From an uncultured Erysipelotrichaceae bacterium (GTDB taxonomy: Bacteria; Bacillota_I; Bacilli_A; RFN20; CAG-826): DNA of 64,000 nucleotides. A program made the translations under genes and the position numbers. Below the pieces are notes generated by a model, which saw nothing but the letters and a program-made list of their open reading frames with translations, searched no databases and had not been told where the DNA came from. Position 1 is the first letter of the stretch, and each line of letters opens with the position of its first letter. Positions 2,403 through 49,825 of the stretch are shown here, piece by piece. Where the stretch lies: positions 79,879 through 143,878 of the forward strand of contig CADCNT010000002.1 of assembly GCA_902802905.1 (NCBI GenBank), written 5' to 3'.

Positions 2403-3524
2403 CTAGGCAATTAAGACTACATCATCGCTACCGACATTGATAACAGCATCACCTTCAACAGTGACACCTGGAGCGATAATAGCGTTATGGATTCTCGCAC
2501 CTTTTTTGATGGTGGCGTTTTCCATGACAACGCATCTTGTAAGTTTGCTTGTTGATTCAATAATGGCACCTGTAGAAATAACACAGGAATCAACATCGCC
2601 TAAAATGATGGCGCCTTGATTAGCGATACTTCTAGTAATTCTGCCGTTTTTGCCAACGTATTGAGGAACACTATAAATGTCTTCGGTGTAGATTCTATTT
2701 GTTGGATCTTCATCATAGAGATTGAGTTCCATCTTATCTAAAGCGATATCCATATTGGCTTCATGTAATGAAGCAAGGGTACCAACATCTCTCCAATAGC
2801 CTTTAAATCTATATGCTTGAAGTTTGCATTTATCTTTAAGCATGTTTGGAATGATGTTTTTACCAAAGTCGTGATCGCTATTAGGATCTTTATCATCTTT
2901 CTTAAGATATTTGCGTAAGGTCTTCCATGTAAAAACATAAACACCCATTGAAGCCAAATTGCTTTTTGGCACTTTTGGTTTTTCTTGGAATTCGACGATG
3001 CGGTCTTTATTATCAACCGCCATAATGCCGAATCTAGAAGCTTCTTTTAGATCAACTTCAATAACAGAAATGGTGACATCAGCTTTGCTGTCTTCGTGTA
3101 ATTTAATCATTTCAGCATAACTGGTCTTATAAATATGGTCGCCAGAGAGGATGACAACATATTCAGGATCGGCATTATCCAAGAAATCAATGTTTTGGGT
3201 AATAGCATCAGCGGTACCTTTATACCAATTAGCCCCTTCTTCTGTTTGTCTAGGAGCAAGGGTAGACATTAAACAGTGAACTCCGTTTAAACCCCATTTT
3301 TCTCCGTTTCCAATATAGGAATCAAGTAATGTGGACTCATATTGAGTGAGAACTCCAACAACGTTGATGCCACTATTAGCACAGTTAGAAAGTGGGAAAT
3401 CGATAATACGGTATTTAGCCGCGAATGAGACTGCAGGTTTAGCAGTCTTTTTTGTTAATGATTCAAGTCTAGTGCCTTTTCCACCAGCGAGAATCATTGC
3501 CACTACTTTGTTTTTATTAAGCAT
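2403..3524 (-). CDS. glgC: Glucose-1-phosphate adenylyltransferase GlgC
   Basis: MLNKNKVVAMILAGGKGTRL (GGxGxRL loop) with a beta-helix-like C-terminus. GGAG sits 8 nt upstream of ATG 3524, so the track start at 3551 was judged too long. Confidence 0.9.
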   Translation of the reverse strand: MLNKNKVVAMILAGGKGTRLESLTKKTAKPAVSFAAKYRIIDFPLSNCANSGINVVGVLTQYESTLLDSYIGNGEKWGLNGVHCLMSTLAPRQTEEGANWYKGTADAITQNIDFLDNADPEYVVILSGDHIYKTSYAEMIKLHEDSKADVTISVIEVDLKEASRFGIMAVDNKDRIVEFQEKPKVPKSNLASMGVYVFTWKTLRKYLKKDDKDPNSDHDFGKNIIPNMLKDKCKLQAYRFKGYWRDVGTLASLHEANMDIALDKMELNLYDEDPTNRIYTEDIYSVPQYVGKNGRITRSIANQGAIILGDVDSCVISTGAIIESTSKLTRCVVMENATIKKGARIHNAIIAPGVTVEGDAVINVGSDDVVLIA

Positions 3525-33792: not shown

Positions 33793-35298
33793 TTATATAA
33801 TAACTCTCGCTGAAATGCACCTTGAGTTCGCTTTAGACAAAAATCCATACTTCGATTTAAGTGGTTCTTCATTAGAACCTTTTATTTTATAAATAATCTC
33901 GATTTTATCTTTATAGATAATTATCTTCTCAACGAATAAATCAATCATTCGTTTTAGGACATCTCTATCCTTGGTTTTAAGTGTCTCTCGGAAATACTTG
34001 AATGCATCCTTTAGTAGTTGTTTGTCTACTGGTTTGTTATCTTGTACTTCACAAGTGGCAAGTTCCATCTCGAGTCTAGAGATATCACCACTAATGGAGA
34101 TGTTTCTTTCATAATAGACATCCTTATCCAACTTTCCATCAAGATAGATATCCAATAGTCTATCTTTTTTATTTTTCAGTTTTCGAATCTCTTTTTCAAG
34201 TGATTCTCGTTTTGTCGGTTCTCCGCCACTTTTTTGTTTGTTTAGGTGAATTATCCATTCATCGACCATTTTGTCGGAAAAAAGGTCATTTGTAATTGAA
34301 AGAAAGATAATCTCTTCTAATCGGTCACGATTGATTGTGGATGGTTTCATATCACAAATGCCATGAGTGTGACCAGTACAACGGTATGCAAGGTAAACAC
34401 TATCTTTGTATGTGACTGAATGACCAGTATAGTGAGAACCACATTCACCACACCAAAGAACTCCAGTCAGTAAGAAGTCATTTTCCTTATGTCTCCTAAA
34501 GATTCTTTTCTTGGATTCGAGTTTGGAGTTGGCACTAATCCAGACATCATAAGAAACAATTGGATCACAAACATTATCGACAATAATTGGTTCATCACTC
34601 TTGGATGCATAAGTGTATGTTCCATAGTAGATTGTGTTACGAATAATCTTTTTAAGAGAGATGATTTCTAGGTTGGCACTTCGAGTTCCTTTAACTCCAC
34701 GATTCTTCAAGTCGGTACAAATAGCAGTTAAGGTATCTCCTTGGATGACACGAGAAAAAATCTCTTGGATAATTGGTGATTCATCTTGGTTAATAATAAA
34801 CTTGCCTTCTTCGTTGATGTCATATCCTAAAGGTCGAGTAGAACAAGACAAACCTTTTCTTGCTCGTGCATGTAAACCTTTTTTAGTTTCTCTTGATAAA
34901 TTAGATGAATAATACTCCGCCATACCTTCTAGAACTGATTCAAGGATGATGGTTTCTGGAGTGTCATCAAGTTTTTCCAAGACTGATATTACCTTGACTC
35001 CATTATCTTTAAGTATCTTCTTATAAAAGGCAAAGTCATATCTATTACGAGAGAATCTATCTAACTTATGAATAATGATAAAGTCGAATTGATGTTTTTC
35101 CGAATCTTTAATCATTCGTTGAAAGTTTTTTCTTTCATCAGTGGTTGCACTCTTGGCTTCATCGATGTATTCACCGACAAGTTCAAAATTCTCTTTGTTA
35201 CAAAATTCTTTGATGGCAAAGAGTTGTGCTTCTATCGAATATCCATCTCGTTGGTTTTCGGAAGAGAATCGGCAATAGGCAACTGCTCTCTTAATCAT
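33793..35298 (-). CDS. Large serine recombinase (phage integrase)
   Basis: 501 aa. N-terminal resolvase domain AVAYCRFSSENQRDGYSIEAQ, recombinase domain, zinc ribbon CGECGSHY...RCTGHTHGIC, then a coiled coil. Confidence 0.9.
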   Translation of the reverse strand: MIKRAVAYCRFSSENQRDGYSIEAQLFAIKEFCNKENFELVGEYIDEAKSATTDERKNFQRMIKDSEKHQFDFIIIHKLDRFSRNRYDFAFYKKILKDNGVKVISVLEKLDDTPETIILESVLEGMAEYYSSNLSRETKKGLHARARKGLSCSTRPLGYDINEEGKFIINQDESPIIQEIFSRVIQGDTLTAICTDLKNRGVKGTRSANLEIISLKKIIRNTIYYGTYTYASKSDEPIIVDNVCDPIVSYDVWISANSKLESKKRIFRRHKENDFLLTGVLWCGECGSHYTGHSVTYKDSVYLAYRCTGHTHGICDMKPSTINRDRLEEIIFLSITNDLFSDKMVDEWIIHLNKQKSGGEPTKRESLEKEIRKLKNKKDRLLDIYLDGKLDKDVYYERNISISGDISRLEMELATCEVQDNKPVDKQLLKDAFKYFRETLKTKDRDVLKRMIDLFVEKIIIYKDKIEIIYKIKGSNEEPLKSKYGFLSKANSRCISARVII

Positions 35299-35689
35299 TG
35301 TTTCTCTCCTTGTAAATGTTTGACATAAGAAGTGTTTTAGTCAAACCATCTTTATTCATACAAAGCAAGTTCTCAATTATGTTGAAGAGAAGAAGTTGTT
35401 CTTCATCAAGATAAGATGAATCAGTTTGTTTTTGGAGTTTCAAACGATTCGAATTACATAACAATACTAGAGACTCTTTGAAACCTCCATGAATATCAAT
35501 TAAATCTTCTCCTAATAACTCGGATGGATAACAATGAAGAGTGTTTGCCAAGATAATTGCAACTCTATAAGTCATCTTAACTCTATTCGTTTCTATGTGT
35601 GCAATTAAAGACCGTTCAATGCCACTTATATCAGCAAGTTCATATTGGGATAAATTATGTTCTTTACGGATTCTTTTAAGATTGTTCAT
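35291..35689 (-). CDS. XRE-family HTH repressor, paralogue A
   Basis: 132 aa. N-terminal HTH LSQYELADISGIERSLIAHIE. About 60% identical over the first 75 aa to the adjacent gene. Confidence 0.75.
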   Translation of the reverse strand: MNNLKRIRKEHNLSQYELADISGIERSLIAHIETNRVKMTYRVAIILANTLHCYPSELLGEDLIDIHGGFKESLVLLCNSNRLKLQKQTDSSYLDEEQLLLFNIIENLLCMNKDGLTKTLLMSNIYKERNND

Positions 35690-36084
35690 TGTTTCGTTTC
35701 CTTATCTAAATTATTTATTATTAGAACTACTTTCATTAGATTGTCATCATCAAGATTTAATAATCCGAGTATGGCATTATAAAGCATTTGTTCTCTCTTA
35801 TCGAAATTTCCACTTTGCAATTTTTGAATCATATCAACTGCATTAGAATCACATAATGCTCTTATCGATTCTTCAAATCCACCATGTATGGCAATTAAAT
35901 CTTCTCCAAGAATTTCGTTTGGGTAACAATGAAAAAAGTTTGCCAAGATAATTGCAACTCGATAAGTCATCTTTGCAGTGCCAAGTTCGAGTTGAGCAAT
36001 CAACGAACGAGATATTTTTGTTTTATTAGCTAGTTCTCTCTGGGATAATCCAGAACGAGTTCTAATTTCCTTCAAATTATTCAT
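35686..36084 (-). CDS. XRE-family HTH repressor, paralogue B (CI-like position)
   Basis: MNNLKEIRTRSGLSQRELANKTKISRSLIAQLE. ATG 36084 with an AAAGGAAAA RBS (track start 36156 rejected). ATGA overlap with paralogue A. Confidence 0.75.
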   Translation of the reverse strand: MNNLKEIRTRSGLSQRELANKTKISRSLIAQLELGTAKMTYRVAIILANFFHCYPNEILGEDLIAIHGGFEESIRALCDSNAVDMIQKLQSGNFDKREQMLYNAILGLLNLDDDNLMKVVLIINNLDKETKQ

Positions 36085-36110
36085 AATTTCCGATTTTCCT
36101 TTGCACAAAT

Positions 36111-36176
36111 ATAATAACAACTTGGTTAATTTTTTGCAACAAAGTGGTTGACACATTTTATTATCTTTGGTTTAAT
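36111..36176. promoter_or_regulatory. Divergent back-to-back promoters of the lysis/lysogeny switch
   Basis: Leftward: TTGCAA (36139-36134), 17 nt, TATTAT (36116-36111). Rightward: TTGACA (36148-36153), 17 nt, TTTAAT (36171-36176). Confidence 0.5.
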
Positions 36177-38784: not shown

Positions 38785-39318
38785 ATGGGTAGAAGAAGGA
38801 AGAAAAGAAGAACTCTTCGGACAACTGAAGAGATACCAAAGGAAATAGCAACACCTCCACATAGACTCACATTTGAAACTGACTCAAAGCTAATTAAAGT
38901 CACTGCCAACATTAGAGATTGCTTAAGAACTAGAAGTATTAGGTCTTGTCTCAAATGTTGTAGGTGGCACGAGTGTAAGACTAGATTGGAGGGGATTAAG
39001 GTGGATGAGATTATCTTGAAAGTATCTTGGCAAGATTTTAAGAAGATTGAACGAGATGAAATTCGAGAGATTAGATCACTCACCAATCTAGCTACATTTC
39101 CACTACTGATATACCTCTATGTAGAACCTCCTTATTACGAAAGAGATAAGAAAGGTGAAATCAAAGGTGTCATCGAAGTAGTCAAAGATAAAACAACGAA
39201 TCAATGGAAGATAGACATGTTCTGGTATCCATTGATATCAGTGATTCCATACTTCATGAGATATGCCGCCAAGGATTGGACTTGGAGTTGGATATCACGA
39301 GAAAACAACAAAAAATAA
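38785..39318 (+). CDS. Hypothetical phage protein (basic N-terminus, Cys-rich segment)
   Basis: This is the only open frame here. 177 aa. CLRTRSIRSCLKCCRWHEC. Confidence 0.4.
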   Translation: MGRRRKKRRTLRTTEEIPKEIATPPHRLTFETDSKLIKVTANIRDCLRTRSIRSCLKCCRWHECKTRLEGIKVDEIILKVSWQDFKKIERDEIREIRSLTNLATFPLLIYLYVEPPYYERDKKGEIKGVIEVVKDKTTNQWKIDMFWYPLISVIPYFMRYAAKDWTWSWISRENNKK

Positions 39319-39322
39319 AGTT

Positions 39323-39341
39323 CCTACCACGAACGAAAGGA
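39323..39341 (+). repeat. 19-nt element CCTACCACGAACGAAAGGA, copy 2 (5' UTR of the C5-MTase gene)
   Basis: Identical to 37349-37367. It ends 6 nt before ATG 39348. Confidence 0.8.
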
Positions 39342-39347
39342 GAATTT

Positions 39348-40763
39348 ATGAGAGATGATGATTTTTGTCAGTTAAACCTCTTTAATTCGTTTAGAGATTA
39401 TAAGAAGTTTGATTCTAACAAGAAATTATTGGTGGTTGAATTCTTCTCCGGGATTGGTGCTACTGCACAAGGATTAAAGAATCTCGGAATCAAATTCACT
39501 CATCATCGAACATGTGAATGGTGTTCAGTAAGTATCAAAGCATACAACATGATTCACATGAAAGACACTACTGATTACTCCAAAGATTTGACCAAGGATC
39601 AACTAATTGCATACCTTGATGGGAATATCTCAACTGATTGGAACACATTATGCAATGTCAAAAAGCAAAATGAGAAATGGTTGAGAGAGACATATAACAA
39701 TTGCATTGCCACTCATAACATGATGAATATCTCGAATGTTCATGGAGAAGATTTGGGAATTCCTTATTCCGATGATTATGAAACATTTTGTTCTTACTCA
39801 TTTCCATGCCAAGACTTGTCTCTTGCTGGAAAGATGAAAGGAATGGAAGAAGGTTCTGGAACACGAAGTTCACTACTCTTTGAGTTCTTACGAATATTAA
39901 GAGAAATAGATGAACTCTATAAACAAGGTAAAAGTGGAAGAATCACTTATCTCTTGATGGAGAATGTACCAGAAGTCATTGGTTCAAAAAATGTGAAGCA
40001 ATTCGTTAAGTTTGAAGAAGAACTAACGAAACTCGGATATACAAATTTTGGTGGAATCTTGAATGGCAAGAATTACTGCATACCACAAAACCGTAGGAGA
40101 TTCTTCTTATTCTCGATTCTTGGTGATTATTCATATGACTTTCCTAAAAGAAGAGAACTGAAATATCACCTTAAGGACTTTTTAGAAGATGAAGTTGATG
40201 AAAAATACTACTTGTCACAAAGAATGATTAACTTCTTCATGTCCAACACCGAGAAACAAGCCGAGAGCGGCAATGGGATTAAAAGCAAATCCATTGCCGC
40301 TACTGATGAAGGTTCGATTGCTCGAACCATTACCACTAAAGCTGGTAGTCGAATGGATGATAACTTCATTATCTACGAAGATGAAGAAGATGACTCCGAA
40401 GAAGTGACAACTCATCAAGACTTAAAAGAAACTCTTGAGGGGGGGGTTATTGAAGAAGGAGACTTTGTCGACACATACAATCGAACGATTAAGAAAGATG
40501 GATGCAGTGGCACTATCACAACTAGGATCAGTGAATGCAATCATCAATATGTAGTTGTGAAAGGCAAAACTATCAAAATCAAGAATGCCACAAAAAAAGG
40601 GTATATCGAAGCTGAAGTCGGTGATGCAATCGATATCTCTGGAAGAATGCAATATCACCGAGGAACGGTTCAAAAAGGAATCAGCCAAACAATCACTACA
40701 ATGGGCGGAGATAATGTTGCAGTGGTTGTAGAAGATAAAGGAGACAACGATGAAGAAAAATGA
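39348..40763 (+). CDS. DNA (cytosine-5) methyltransferase, large ORF: motifs I-VIII plus three TRD-like units
   Basis: FFSGIGA (I), SFPCQDLS (IV), MENV (VI), QNRRRFF (VIII). Then ARTITTK, SGTITTR and SQTITTMGG units. The start is set at 39348, not 39204. Confidence 0.85.
   Translation: MRDDDFCQLNLFNSFRDYKKFDSNKKLLVVEFFSGIGATAQGLKNLGIKFTHHRTCEWCSVSIKAYNMIHMKDTTDYSKDLTKDQLIAYLDGNISTDWNTLCNVKKQNEKWLRETYNNCIATHNMMNISNVHGEDLGIPYSDDYETFCSYSFPCQDLSLAGKMKGMEEGSGTRSSLLFEFLRILREIDELYKQGKSGRITYLLMENVPEVIGSKNVKQFVKFEEELTKLGYTNFGGILNGKNYCIPQNRRRFFLFSILGDYSYDFPKRRELKYHLKDFLEDEVDEKYYLSQRMINFFMSNTEKQAESGNGIKSKSIAATDEGSIARTITTKAGSRMDDNFIIYEDEEDDSEEVTTHQDLKETLEGGVIEEGDFVDTYNRTIKKDGCSGTITTRISECNHQYVVVKGKTIKIKNATKKGYIEAEVGDAIDISGRMQYHRGTVQKGISQTITTMGGDNVAVVVEDKGDNDEEK
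40439..40446 (+). repeat. G8 homopolymer inside the C5-MTase large ORF (in frame, encodes part of EGGV)
   Basis: gaGGGGGGGGtt, read directly. This is the longest G run seen in the window. Confidence 0.95.
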
Positions 40764-41151
40764 GTATGTTGGAGTGTTCGACATTAAAGAATCCGATACA
40801 TTTCGACCAACACTTGAATCAAGAATCCATTTAGACTCACCAGTCTCCAAGACATTAACTTGTCGAGAGGATAGCTGCGGTGTCATCGAGAGAGAGAGAG
40901 AGAGTAGACTCCGAATCCGAAAACTCACTCCGAGAGAATGTTTCCGCCTTATGGGTTTCGATGATGACTCATTTAATTCTCTTGAAGGTCAATTCTCAAA
41001 CAACAATCTCTATCATCTTGCCGGAGACTCAATCATCAGTGTTGTTATCTCATACATATGTCTAGGTCTTATGGAAGATGAAAAAGAAGCTGAAAGCAAA
41101 ATTCAAAAATATGTCGATACATTAAAGGAGGACAAAGATGGAAACAAATAA
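40750..41151 (+). CDS. DNA (cytosine-5) methyltransferase, small ORF: fourth TRD-like unit plus motifs IX-X
   Basis: SKTLTCRED, RKLTPRECFRLMGFDD (IX), AGDSI (X). It has its own AAAGGAG RBS 7 nt upstream and overlaps the large ORF by 14 nt. Confidence 0.8.
   Translation: MKKNEYVGVFDIKESDTFRPTLESRIHLDSPVSKTLTCREDSCGVIERERESRLRIRKLTPRECFRLMGFDDDSFNSLEGQFSNNNLYHLAGDSIISVVISYICLGLMEDEKEAESKIQKYVDTLKEDKDGNK
40888..40904 (+). repeat. (GA)8 tract inside the C5-MTase small ORF (in frame, encodes ERERE)
   Basis: GAGAGAGAGAGAGAGAG, read directly. It lies about 15 nt upstream of motif IX. Confidence 0.95.
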
Positions 41152-41876
41152 GATTTACTTCGGTGATGCATATGAACTCATTAAGGAAATCCCGGATAAA
41201 TCAATCGACTTAATTTATACTGATCCACCTTATGACTTCCATAGTGGAACTGCAGTATCTGGTGGAATCTTCAAAGATAGAGAATGCAAACCATATCAAG
41301 ATGTGGTTGATGCCAAATTAAATGCTGGAATAGACAACTCAATCTTGGATGAATTTGTAAGAATACTAAAGCATATATATATATATATGGTGCAACAAGT
41401 CTCAAATTCCGTTCTATCTAAATTACTTCTTGTCTTATCCAAATATAAGTTTCGAGATTCTAACATGGCACAAGAAAAATCCATCACCAATTACAAAAAA
41501 CACATTCTTACCAGATACCGAATACTGCCTTATGTTTCGAGAAAAGGGTGTGTGCCTATTAAATGATGGATATGAATTAAAACATAAGTATTACATCTCA
41601 AGTACCAACAAAGATGACAAAGATGATTACTTGCATCCGACAATCAAACCAATTGAATTTGTCGAAAAGCACATTGCTCATTCTACTCAAGTCGGTGATA
41701 TCGTATTTGATCCATTCTTGGGTAGTGGCACTACTGCACTTGCAGCTAAACATCTTGGAAGAAAATATATCGGATTTGAAATCAATGAGACTTATTACAA
41801 AATCGCGGTTGACCGTTTACAAGGAATCAATCAAAAAGGAGAGATGAATCTCTTCGACATAATGGGAGATGAATGA
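41138..41876 (+). pseudogene. Beta-class DPPY (N6-adenine-type) DNA methyltransferase, frame-shifted at an (AT)8 tract (phase-OFF allele)
   Basis: Frame 1 carries IYTDPPYDF up to the tract. From the tract on, the +1 frame reads IYIWCNKSQ...ILTWHKKNP...HPTIKP...FDPFLGSGTTALAA. (AT)9 would give one 246-aa ORF. Confidence 0.85.
41373..41388 (+). repeat. (AT)8 tract at the frameshift point of the DPPY methyltransferase
   Basis: gcATATATATATATATATgg, read directly. Confidence 0.95.
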
Positions 41877-42040
41877 TGGCAAAGAAATATCTAGAGTTCA
41901 CTGATATAGAACTCATCCAAGAAATTCATAGAATTGAACATTTACTTACAACTAATAAGAAACCACTAACACATAGGCAAAATAAAATCTACTTACAAAA
42001 GCTGCATAACGAATGGGGAAGGAGAAAAAATGGCAAATAG
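41876..42040 (+). CDS. Small hypothetical ORF (54 aa), below the ORF-track cutoff
   Basis: My translation: MAKKYLEFTDIELIQEIHRIEHLL...WGRRKNGK. ATGA-type overlap with the MTase stop. Confidence 0.3.
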   Translation: MAKKYLEFTDIELIQEIHRIEHLLTTNKKPLTHRQNKIYLQKLHNEWGRRKNGK

Positions 42041-42260
42041 ACAACAATTACTCGGAAGAGTCATCGATGGATATTGGGAAATCGTTAAAGCAATTAAGAC
42101 TGGAAATTCCCGAAACTACAATTACATTCTCCGAAACCAATATAACGGAACTGAAGTTCAAGTTGGTGGTACAACGGTTAGATCAATCATTAAAGGAGAA
42201 ACTAGTGTCTCCAAAATCGTATCAAGAAGAATCAAAAAAGGAGAAAGAAGAAATGGATAA
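42030..42260 (+). CDS. Hypothetical small phage protein
   Basis: 76 aa with a GGAGAAAAAA RBS before the ATG. Confidence 0.45.
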   Translation: MANRQQLLGRVIDGYWEIVKAIKTGNSRNYNYILRNQYNGTEVQVGGTTVRSIIKGETSVSKIVSRRIKKGERRNG

Positions 42261-43156
42261 TGAATTACTACTCTTCGATAGATTAGAAATCATTAAAACC
42301 ACTATCAATAAATATGGAATAGATAATTTCTACTTATCGTTCTCTGGTGGTAAAGATTCCACTATTCTCCATCACTTGATAGATATGGCACTTCCGGGAA
42401 ATAGAATTCCAAGAGTGTTTGTAAACACTGGAATCGAATACAACATGATTGTTCAGTTTGTTAAGGATATGGCAGCTAAAGATGACCGATTCGTAATCAT
42501 TGCACCAAGTAAACCAATTAAAAAGGTGTTAGAAGAATTCGGTTATCCGTTCAAATCCAAAGAACACTCACTACGAGTTTACCAATTCAACAAAGGTCAA
42601 AACTCGAATTACATCAAGAAATACATATCTGGTTATGACCATAATGGCAAAGAATCGACATTTGTATGTCCAAAGATTCTCAAGTATCAGTTTGAGGAAA
42701 GAGGTAAATACAACTACTCAAATCTATGTTGCCAAAAACTGAAGAAAGAACCAGTTCATAAATGGGAGAAGGAAAACCATAAGTCCATTGCGATGACTGG
42801 TATGAGAGCGGAGGAAGGTGGCAATCGAGCAAGACTCGGATGCATCATCACCGACTCTAAAGGAAGATTGAAGAGATTCCATCCACTCATCAAAGTCGAT
42901 GAACAATGGGAAGATTGGTTATTAGAGAGAGAGAGAGAGAATAGCACTCGCACCACTCTATTGCCAACCATTCAACTTCAAAAGGACCGGATGTAAAGGA
43001 TGCCCGTTCAGTCTTGAACTCCAAGAACAACTTGACATCATGCAAATCTATCTCCCGGCTGAACGAAAACAATGTGAATTCATTTGGGAGTATGTCTACA
43101 AGGAATATCGAAGAATCGGATATCGATTGAAAGACAAAATCACTATTTGGGATTAA
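42253..43156 (+). pseudogene. PAPS/APS-reductase-like PP-loop protein (DndC-like fold), frame-shifted at a (GA)8 tract (phase-OFF allele)
   Basis: SFSGGKDS PP-loop and LCCQKLKKEPV in frame 0. After the tract the +1 frame reads IALAPLYCQPFNFKRTGCKGCPF... through to a stop at 43154-43156. The start is set at ATG 42253 (AAAGGAGAAAG RBS). Confidence 0.8.
42924..42940 (+). repeat. (AG)8A / (GA)8 tract at the frameshift point of the PAPS-reductase-like gene
   Basis: ttAGAGAGAGAGAGAGAGAat, read directly. Confidence 0.95.
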
Positions 43157-43170
43157 GGAGACTCAAAAAA

Positions 43171-43578
43171 ATGAAATATCTAAAGGTTCTCACACCGTTA
43201 GAATCAGTCAAAATCTTAAATCATAAAATGGATCAAATCGATTTCTTCTATGAATTGACTGATAAAGATGAAATCTATTTGTTGGTCAGTAACGATGAAA
43301 GATTCGTTCTAGACTATGACTACGATGGAAGTTGGTTTGTCTGGGATAAAAAGGCACACCACTATCCATTCAAAGATATTGAAATGAACAATGGCAAAAT
43401 CGTTGCACACTGCAAAGCTGCCAAAGTTGAAAAGAAAATAATCGGTTCAATCAATTATTACCGAACAAAAATAAAAGACTTAATTGTCTATGACTCTCCA
43501 AAAGATGATGTTGGAGAAATCTTCAAGAAAGATGTTGCACCACAATTCGTGGAAGAAGGAGAAAACGATGGAAGATAG
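43171..43578 (+). CDS. Hypothetical phage protein
   Basis: ATG 43171 preceded by AAGGAG. 135 aa. Confidence 0.5.
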   Translation: MKYLKVLTPLESVKILNHKMDQIDFFYELTDKDEIYLLVSNDERFVLDYDYDGSWFVWDKKAHHYPFKDIEMNNGKIVAHCKAAKVEKKIIGSINYYRTKIKDLIVYDSPKDDVGEIFKKDVAPQFVEEGENDGR

Positions 43579-49315: not shown

Positions 49316-49825
49316 ATGGCTGGGAGAAAACCGAAAGTCACTGGAAGTGGTCATCGTACCAAAAAGGAAAAGTCGGCTTATAAAGAGATGACTGAATCTC
49401 TCCGTACTCCAAGCACTATGCCTTGTCCGAAATGGTTGACCAAACAAGGTCAACAAATCTTCCGTAAGTTGAAGAAGCAGTATAACGAGATGCCCGGCAA
49501 TCCGTTATGTAATCTTGATATCACTCCATTGGCGGTTCTTGCTAATGCGATGGATATATATATTGAAGCTCATAAGGAGTTTGTAGAAGGTGGATCACAT
49601 CTAACCGTAATACAAATTTCAAAGGGCAGTGAAAAAGAGGTCATCAATCCACTTGTTAAAACAATGAATGAACAAGCTGCGATTGTAGCCAAGTTGTCCG
49701 ACCAACTATGTCTCACTCCAATCGGTAGAATGAGAATGGGTGTCAATGCATCAAAAACACCGAAAGATGAATTCTTGGATATCTTCAATGATCCAGATGA
49801 AAACGAAGATGTGGATGATGGCTAA
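49316..49825 (+). CDS. Terminase small subunit (P27 family)
   Basis: MAGRKPKVTG... N-terminus and LCLTPIGRMRMG C-terminal motif, typical of the P27 family. Confidence 0.8.
   Translation: MAGRKPKVTGSGHRTKKEKSAYKEMTESLRTPSTMPCPKWLTKQGQQIFRKLKKQYNEMPGNPLCNLDITPLAVLANAMDIYIEAHKEFVEGGSHLTVIQISKGSEKEVINPLVKTMNEQAAIVAKLSDQLCLTPIGRMRMGVNASKTPKDEFLDIFNDPDENEDVDDG

Follow-up and report, generated by a model that had tools for sequence, protein, structure and literature searches.

Switching a DNA methyltransferase on and off through changes in repeat length is a textbook device of bacteria, exemplified by the phasevarions of Haemophilus, Neisseria and Helicobacter, in which simple sequence repeats switch Type III and Type I mod genes. 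A different elaboration of DNA methylation is found in the multispecific C5 methyltransferases of Bacillus phages (the SPR, phi3T and rho11s type), orphan enzymes in which several target-recognition modules stand in tandem between motif VIII and motif IX. Here we describe a locus that recalls both: a GA repeat within the gene for the small (beta) subunit of a split, multi-module C5 methylase, carried by a prophage on a 64-kb stretch of DNA from an uncultured Erysipelotrichaceae bacterium (contig CADCNT010000002.1; the whole stretch is called the window below, and positions count from its first nucleotide). It is highly probable, in our judgment, that this tract is a contingency locus of a temperate phage of rumen Bacilli, at which slipped-strand mispairing alters the reading frame of the methylase.

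The likeness to phasevarions lies in the ON/OFF control of a DNA methyltransferase by repeat length, although phasevarions are host-encoded and regulate host regulons. With the SPR/phi3T type the enzyme appears to share its several tandem modules, but it differs in being split and repeat-gated. Poly(GA) and poly(G) phase-variable methyltransferases are known from mycoplasmas, namely the CpG-specific C5 enzymes of M. pulmonis, M. crocodyli and M. agalactiae and a Type III mod of M. agalactiae (PMC9465063). There, as here, a coding GA or G repeat lies mid-gene, just upstream of conserved catalytic sequence, and length polymorphism leads to premature stops; the hosts, too, are low-GC Bacillota relatives, in the present case an Erysipelotrichaceae-like rumen lineage. 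The mycoplasma enzymes, however, are chromosomal, single-chain and of single specificity, whereas the one described here is phage-borne, divided into alpha and beta subunits, equipped with several target-recognition modules and accompanied by three neighboring DNA-modification open reading frames (ORFs) with tracts of their own.

Contingency loci in phages were first claimed in a 2025 preprint, for short homopolymers in virulent coliphages: in T2, such loci in the DNA-glucosyltransferase gene agt trade off exposure to TgvAB against exposure to McrA/BC (Gomez, Barrick and Waters, bioRxiv, October 2025, PMC12633550). The preprint, which treats homopolymers only, notes that no such loci had previously been attributed to phages. 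In T2, toggling lets subpopulations evade either a defense that depends on modification (TgvAB) or one aimed at unmodified DNA (McrA/BC). The two cases have in common that a hypermutable repeat lies within a phage gene for DNA modification, and the bet-hedging logic, with its escape from defense, is what we propose for the present locus. The T2 work concerns A runs of at least 6 nucleotides (nt) and was shown experimentally, while the tracts considered here are dinucleotide repeats of 8-12 units together with a G8 run, lie in four adjacent ORFs of a temperate phage and are known from metagenome population data. A precedent for the split enzyme exists in M.AquI and M.EcoHK31I, whose large subunit holds motifs I-VIII and the proximal variable region and whose small subunit holds the distal variable region and motifs IX-X (PMC3404938). 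No repeat switch is described for M.AquI, and the enzyme described here adds extra modules in alpha, a 14-nt gene overlap and a conserved ribosome-binding site. Our literature search turned up no dinucleotide-repeat switch in a phage-encoded methylase or in a split C5 methylase; what it returned was confined to the mycoplasma switches and the preprint of 2025.

An in-frame GA tract before motif IX

Tandem Repeats Finder reports the tract with period 2, 8.5 copies and 100% matches. In the frame of the beta ORF, positions 40885-40905 (atc GAG AGA GAG AGA GAG AGt) encode IERERES in a variable linker; five codons (S R L R I) lie between ERERE and the RKLT of motif IX, and motif X (AGDSI) follows further downstream. 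Sequence, translation and repeat finder thus bear out the in-frame (GA)8 of the initial annotation, and the motif coordinates agree with where it placed motifs IX and X. The annotation located the tract inside a C5 methyltransferase, which is right insofar as the ORF matches PF00145; the methylase, however, consists of two overlapping ORFs, with the tract in the second.

In 100 dinucleotide-preserving shuffles of the window, no match to (GA)8 arose, even with one mismatch allowed. Only three dinucleotide repeats of more than five units occur in the 64 kb, all of exactly eight units: GA at 40888, AT at 41373 and AG at 42924. They lie within 2.05 kb, each in a DNA-modification gene, and the other 62 kb is devoid of such repeats, including the 33 kb of chromosomal sequence (1-33500). 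An antisense ORF (40422-40928) that overlaps the GA tract was disregarded, being without support.

Tract length varies between otherwise identical contigs

The locus was recovered on 19 further contigs through look-ups of neighboring proteins and scans for exact flanks, and the counts in Table 1 include the window. All comparison sequences are short-read metagenome assemblies from different samples, assemblers and archives (Logan, ENA, JGI and NCBI); lengths are contig consensus alleles.

Table 1. Lengths of the repeat tracts among contigs carrying the locus
Tract	Contigs	Lengths (units or nt) x contigs	ON length	Contigs ON
GA (beta)	18	6 x 3, 7 x 3, 8 x 6, 9 x 3, 10 x 3	8	6
AT (N6/N4 methylase)	15	8 x 7, 10 x 7, 11 x 1	9	0
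AG (PAPS-reductase-like)	9	8 x 3, 9 x 4, 10 x 1, 12 x 1	9 or 12	5
G run (alpha)	20	G8 x 18, G9 x 2	8	18
A run (alpha, control; 40592-40598)	20	A7 in all

Tract length changes far faster than the surrounding sequence acquires point substitutions, as pairs of near-identical contigs make plain. In an all-against-all blastn comparison, the window and contig L091 align over 5473 nt with no substitution and three gaps, which are the GA (8/7), AT (8/10) and AG (8/9) tracts themselves. Contig L098 differs from the window by one mismatch and by its GA length (8/9). Three contigs from neighboring runs of one project, L095, L097 and L099, show no mismatches among them and carry G9/GA8, G8/GA8 and G9/GA10, respectively, such that the G run is the one difference between the first two. 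Zero-substitution pairs span 2.3-5.5 kb and differ at repeat tracts only, which is the basis for concluding that tract change outruns point mutation.

These differences have direct consequences for the reading frame. Eight units are the only observed length that yields a beta protein with motifs IX-X (131-138 amino acids). With 7 or 10 units a stop codon falls right after the repeat, leaving products of 51 or 53 amino acids, and with 6 or 9 units 50 wrong residues are read, giving products of 103-105 amino acids. By arithmetic, 5 or 11 units should be in frame as well. The expectation that any change other than by a multiple of three units removes motifs IX-X is therefore matched by every allele seen, since all those other than eight truncate or misread beta. 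Likewise, the proposal that the tract is a switch in its ON state sits well with the 6-10 units found among the 18 contigs and with the in-frame eight of the window. Gene calls in a beta cluster built at 90% tell the same story, with about 20 contigs encoding 131-135 amino acids versus at least 19 bearing remnants of 66 or 53 amino acids.

A naturally split two-subunit methylase

The motif content predicts that alpha and beta together catalyze formation of 5-methylcytosine. Alpha matches the Pfam family PF00145 (E=1e-35, profile positions 24-234) and holds motifs I (EFFSGIG, 39438), IV (FPCQ, 39801), VI (ENVPEV, 39960) and VIII (QNRRRFF, 40086), followed by three target-recognition-like modules (ARTITTK, SGTITTR and SQTITTM). 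Beta contributes the final target-recognition module, marked by SKTLTCRE (40846), then the ERERE linker, motif IX (RKLTPRECFRLMGFDD, 40918-40965) and motif X (41020-41034). Across the pair, C5 DNA methyltransferase motifs I, IV (PCQ), VI (ENV), VIII (QxRxR), IX and X are thus present in order, and thousands of homologues match with E<=1e-10 for C5 methylase. The recognition modules share a ..T[IL]T[TC].. core (SKTLTCR in the case of beta), and homologues differ in how many they carry.

Several lines of evidence point to the division between the subunits being genuine, such that the methylase appears to be a naturally split enzyme in which the GA tract gates only beta. The two ORFs use different frames across their 14-nt overlap, and a Shine-Dalgarno sequence, AAAGGAGA, precedes the beta start codon (Table 2). 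The identical 471-residue alpha protein (P0001) occurs on seven other contigs, and the exact beta protein on seven contigs. An alpha protein of 84% identity (P0002) ends at the same point as that of the window, and the split is kept at 99% and at 84% identity. A diverged lineage (L008/L009) retains the layout of ribosome-binding site, ATG and TGA with a different sequence (GAAGGAGAgaacgATG...AAATGA), despite a 3-nt indel. Among homologues, many are alpha-only proteins of about 400-480 amino acids and others are fused proteins of 530-660 amino acids with varying module number; further split relatives exist (L026, L032 and L034), and in other phages beta starts right at motif IX. The dependence of activity on both subunits is expected by analogy with M.AquI (PMC3404938).

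Other accounts of the break between alpha and beta were considered. A sequencing error, or a switch at an A5 run, was rejected, since all contigs share the identical break and the 84%-identity lineage retains it with a different sequence. Reading TGA as tryptophan (genetic code 4) was rejected for the apparent breaks because read-through meets further stops. A +1 frameshift at AAA-TGA would be less parsimonious than re-initiation at the conserved Shine-Dalgarno sequence and ATG.

The surrounding DNA-modification module is mosaic. Some variants (L001, L095-L097) carry an unrelated ORF of 262 amino acids instead of the PAPS-reductase-like gene, and others (L002, L008) an ORF of 176 amino acids instead of the N6/N4 methylase. 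All of these mosaic variants keep the split C5 methylase with its GA tract.

Signs of selection on the repeat and on the frames it controls

Were the Glu-Arg stretch itself of value, homologous methylases might be expected to conserve it with mixed codons, the outcome that the initial annotation named as speaking against its proposal. Instead, the linker before [LIF][RK]IRKLTP is short and variable in the fused homologues and in 79 IMG/VR relatives (VKNE, GGGLSN, TERESN and others), and ERERE never occurs at this linker among them. One fused homologue (P0018; L187 5345, L188 2654) has its last recognition module (YVGVYDYKESDTFRPT...VSKTLTTRKDSC) in common with the window enzyme and has the linker NGGGLSN, encoded AAT GGG GGG GGG TTA, a G9 run immediately before motif IX. 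Runs of G8-G10 are also found 29-43 nt before motif IX in five IMG/VR loci (L026, L027, L032, L034 and L035). From this recurrence, the linker before motif IX appears to have repeatedly acquired repeats of different kinds. It had been argued, from the same tract design in two unrelated genes, that selection acts on the nucleotide repeat and not on the peptide. For the methylase, where no homologue has ERERE, this holds up well; for the PAPS-reductase-like gene it holds only in part, as E[RK]E[RKN] is conserved there.

The genes are under purifying selection, also in the frames reached only when a tract is ON, and are not decaying pseudogenes. Ratios of nonsynonymous to synonymous change (pN/pS) were taken from Nei-Gojobori counts against the window sequence, and for alpha they range from 0.07 to 0.25. 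Downstream of the tract, beta has a pN/pS of 0.36 against the 10%-diverged L008, and four synonymous and no nonsynonymous changes against L003. The corresponding regions show six synonymous versus 0-1 nonsynonymous changes in the N6/N4 methylase, and 7-13 versus none in the PAPS-reductase-like gene. No other stops or frame breaks were found in the compared genes, up to 10% nucleotide divergence.

Further tracts and the prophage that carries them

Three more tracts accompany the GA repeat (Table 2). The G run in alpha is probably a fourth switch that varies less often: G8 is found in the window and in 17 of the 19 other contigs, while in the two with G9 (L095 and L099) alpha is called as two pieces of 368 and 109 amino acids.

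Table 2. Features of the window that bear on the repeat-switched DNA-modification genes
Feature	Position	Strand	Description
Hypermutable coding repeat	40888-40904	+	(GA)8.5, in beta
Alpha subunit gene, split C5 DNA methyltransferase	39348-40763	+	471 amino acids from MRDDD; longest ORF start 39204
Beta subunit gene	40750-41151	+	133 amino acids; PF00145 positions 270-318 of 324
Alpha/beta junction	40737-40763	+	Shine-Dalgarno sequence 40737-40744, N5, beta ATG 40750, alpha stop TGA 40761-40763
G8 run in alpha	40439-40446	+	GAG GGG GGG GTT = EGGV, between first and second target-recognition modules
N6/N4 (beta-class) DNA methyltransferase	41138-41876	+	split by (AT)8 41373-41388; DPPY upstream, FLGSGTT downstream
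PAPS-reductase-like gene	42013-43156	+	(AG)8 at 42924-42939 encodes LERERE
Large serine recombinase	33793-35298	-	prophage
Repressor	35686-36156	-	prophage

The N6/N4 methylase is OFF in the window, its eight AT units being one short of the nine needed for frame. With (AT)9 the translation becomes KHIYIYIWC, the same as in the fused homologue of L187, where HIYIYIW is written with interrupted codons (CAT ATT TAT ATC TAT ATT TGG). In the window lineage, a conserved peptide has been rewritten synonymously as a pure (AT)n repeat. Among the 15 contigs the lengths 8, 10 and 11 occur but never 9, the sole in-frame length in that range, even though strong purifying selection acts on both halves of the gene; with some eight independent lineages, this is only suggestive of an ON state avoided in the assembled majority.

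The PAPS-reductase-like gene is OFF in the window as well, with its conserved C-terminus (RTGCKGCPF..., 42941-43153) in the +1 frame; nine or 12 AG units restore it, giving the products of 381 or 365 amino acids that other contigs encode. Homologues conserve E[RK]E[RKN]I at the tract site: one of 74% identity (L185) has an in-frame (GA)6, and one of 88% an interrupted GAA AGA GAG AAA. The window tract has grown from such a proto-repeat and has one extra Glu-Arg, part of the peptide being ancestral. The initial annotation presented this tract as a sister of the GA repeat, with the same encoded ERERE; the coding is as it said, but the gene is OFF in the window and is not a parallel ON case.

The chromosomal part of the window comprises glgC, an rsmB-like gene, priA, the atp operon, pfp and glpK, and the GC content of the window is 35%. 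AtpD shares 96% identity with the AtpD of uncultured rumen metagenome-assembled genomes labeled Erysipelotrichaceae, Bacilli or Bacillales (RUG042, RUG11432 and UBA2450), and the host is accordingly best described, from its genes, as a probable uncultured rumen bacterium of Bacilli/Erysipelotrichaceae-like affiliation. The prophage begins at about 33.8 kb, integrated beside the chromosomal atp, priA and glpK genes, and its phage identity is evident from the presence of recombinase, repressor, terminase and portal. After the repressor, a rightward early block runs through cro-like, replication and DNA-modification genes, followed by the terminase at 49825 and structural genes; the C5 methylase genes lie downstream of the cro-like and replication genes, in opposite orientation to repressor and recombinase. 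The same phage was found as contigs of 36-38 kb in many rumen metagenomes and as IMG/VR UViG_3300011005_000130. The recombinase ORF has 501 amino acids in the window and 530 on most phage contigs. Megablast of positions 39000-43200 against the GenBank phage collection gave no match, and an exact-flank pattern scan of GTDB representative genomes did not find the locus.

How the switch may work, and what else could explain it

The most likely function of the tract is slipped-strand ON/OFF switching of phage DNA methylation in the face of host restriction. Replication slippage would add or remove GA units, and eight units alone (arithmetically also five or 11) would join the last target-recognition module in frame with motifs IX-X. 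At other lengths beta would be truncated or misread, and since alpha lacks motifs IX-X, there would presumably be no C5 methylation; OFF alleles would in that case abolish the modification altogether. Because the genes sit in the early lytic block, the DNA of the phage itself is the most likely target. Acting together, the G8, (GA)n, (AT)n and (AG)n tracts could create a mixture of DNA-modification states in a phage population. Methylation would shield the phage from classical restriction while exposing it to modification-dependent nucleases, and mixed progeny would hedge between hosts that cut unmethylated DNA and hosts that cut methylated DNA. Such a benefit would presuppose frequent, reversible switching inside a single population, which we infer; the same-project contigs L095, L097 and L099, alike in all but their tracts, point to it indirectly.

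Some observations weigh against this account. The ON fraction—six of 18 contigs, and about 20 ON versus at least 19 OFF gene calls—is what neutral length drift would give as well. The contigs are not fully independent, as some share a project or lineage and similar places were collapsed in the look-up, and contig consensus alleles could partly reflect fixed polymorphism. Taken at face value, an ON fraction near one-third suits a neutral microsatellite in dispensable or decaying accessory genes, which would mutate fast and flip between ON and OFF without any selected role; it also fits such a view that none of the 15 contigs has the N6/N4 methylase ON, and that phages often vary or lose their accessory methylases (PMC7468147). 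The selection data run counter to it, however: the ON-only frames are under strong purifying selection, free of other stops or indels up to 10% divergence. Further, the three 8-unit tracts lie nowhere but in three neighboring DNA-modification genes, repeats were gained independently at the same linker in other lineages, and the conserved HIYIYIW was recoded into pure (AT)n. Selection and recurrent, localized repeat gain together make neutral drift of a dispensable gene unlikely. An alternative that we regard as slightly more plausible, yet still improbable as the primary role, is a phasevarion, in which prophage methylases switch the methylome and expression of the lysogenic host rather than chiefly protecting phage DNA. 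Bacterial methylases switched by simple sequence repeats commonly work in this way, prophage methylases can reprogram hosts, as PamA does in S. aureus (cited in PMC13076061), and the window copy is itself an integrated prophage. Against this, the genes lie in the rightward early-lytic block, suggesting expression after induction. The two roles are in any event compatible, and switched protection of phage DNA need not preclude effects on a lysogen.

Two further explanations carry much less weight. A selected (Glu-Arg)n peptide, for instance a charged linker of which the repeat is a by-product of codon choice, could draw on the conservation of E[RK]E[RKN] in the PAPS-reductase-like family. It is a very improbable explanation of the GA tract, given that no methylase homologue has ERERE at the linker, that two-thirds of the natural GA alleles destroy the reading frame and that a related enzyme carries poly-G (NGGGL) at the same place. 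Stutter or mis-assembly at the repeat deserves mention, as dinucleotide repeats do show some stutter in the polymerase chain reaction and all comparison sequences are short-read metagenome assemblies. Yet the tracts measure 12-24 nt, far below read length and assembly k-mers (k87-k141); within the same gene, A7 is invariant in all contigs and G8 is found in 18 of 20; and the lengths are discrete across assemblers and archives, differing by up to four units. With tracts shorter than reads and k-mers, and with stable homopolymer controls, an artefact is the least credible of the alternatives, and slipped-strand switching of a phage methylase remains the reading we favor.

Repeats in related phages and their implications

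Relatives of beta in IMG/VR offer a view beyond this one phage. Counting, in 79 such loci (L012-L090), the G/C runs that reach 8 nt or more and the dinucleotide repeats of six or more units, we found 43 tracts in the 127 kb of C5-methylase region and 14 in the 352 kb of flanking DNA, an approximately 8.5-fold greater density; nearly all have G on the coding strand. Several of the genes have 3-6 runs (L037, L074, L076, L078 and L089), and the loci span 26-50% GC.

Individual loci illustrate the variety. An unrelated low-GC phage, L026 (also L027), has three tracts, at 3273, 3961 and 4446: an (AT)9 in the C5 methylase, immediately ahead of motif IV (DIYIYICTYSFPCQ), a G10 run that shortens alpha at its end, with beta starting at motif IX, and a second (AT)9 in an adjacent NPPF-type N6 methylase (PYIYIYILLP). 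In L189/L190 5690, a G10 run stands immediately ahead of motif I (VIFDAFLGSGTT) in an N6_N4 methylase beside the C5-methylase homologue P0069, and in both contigs the frame is shifted at that point.

It is tempting, if still tentative and somewhat short of an even bet, to regard combinatorial repeat switching of DNA modification as a general counter-defense of phages with multi-module C5 methylases. If so, four independent tracts could allow as many as 16 modification states per burst, and related phages would have independently placed poly-G, (AT)n and (GA)n in C5 and N6 methylases, often before motif IX. The N6 methylase, one step from ON yet never ON in 15 contigs, would then represent a costly modification held in reserve.

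What this locus adds to the homopolymers of virulent coliphages is a set of long dinucleotide switches spread across the DNA-modification module of a temperate phage, seen in natural populations, one of them in the small-subunit gene of a split methylase. If the switching does serve bet-hedging, phage epigenomes would be heterogeneous by design, with a bearing on host range, on escape from restriction and on methylation-based host assignment in metagenomes.

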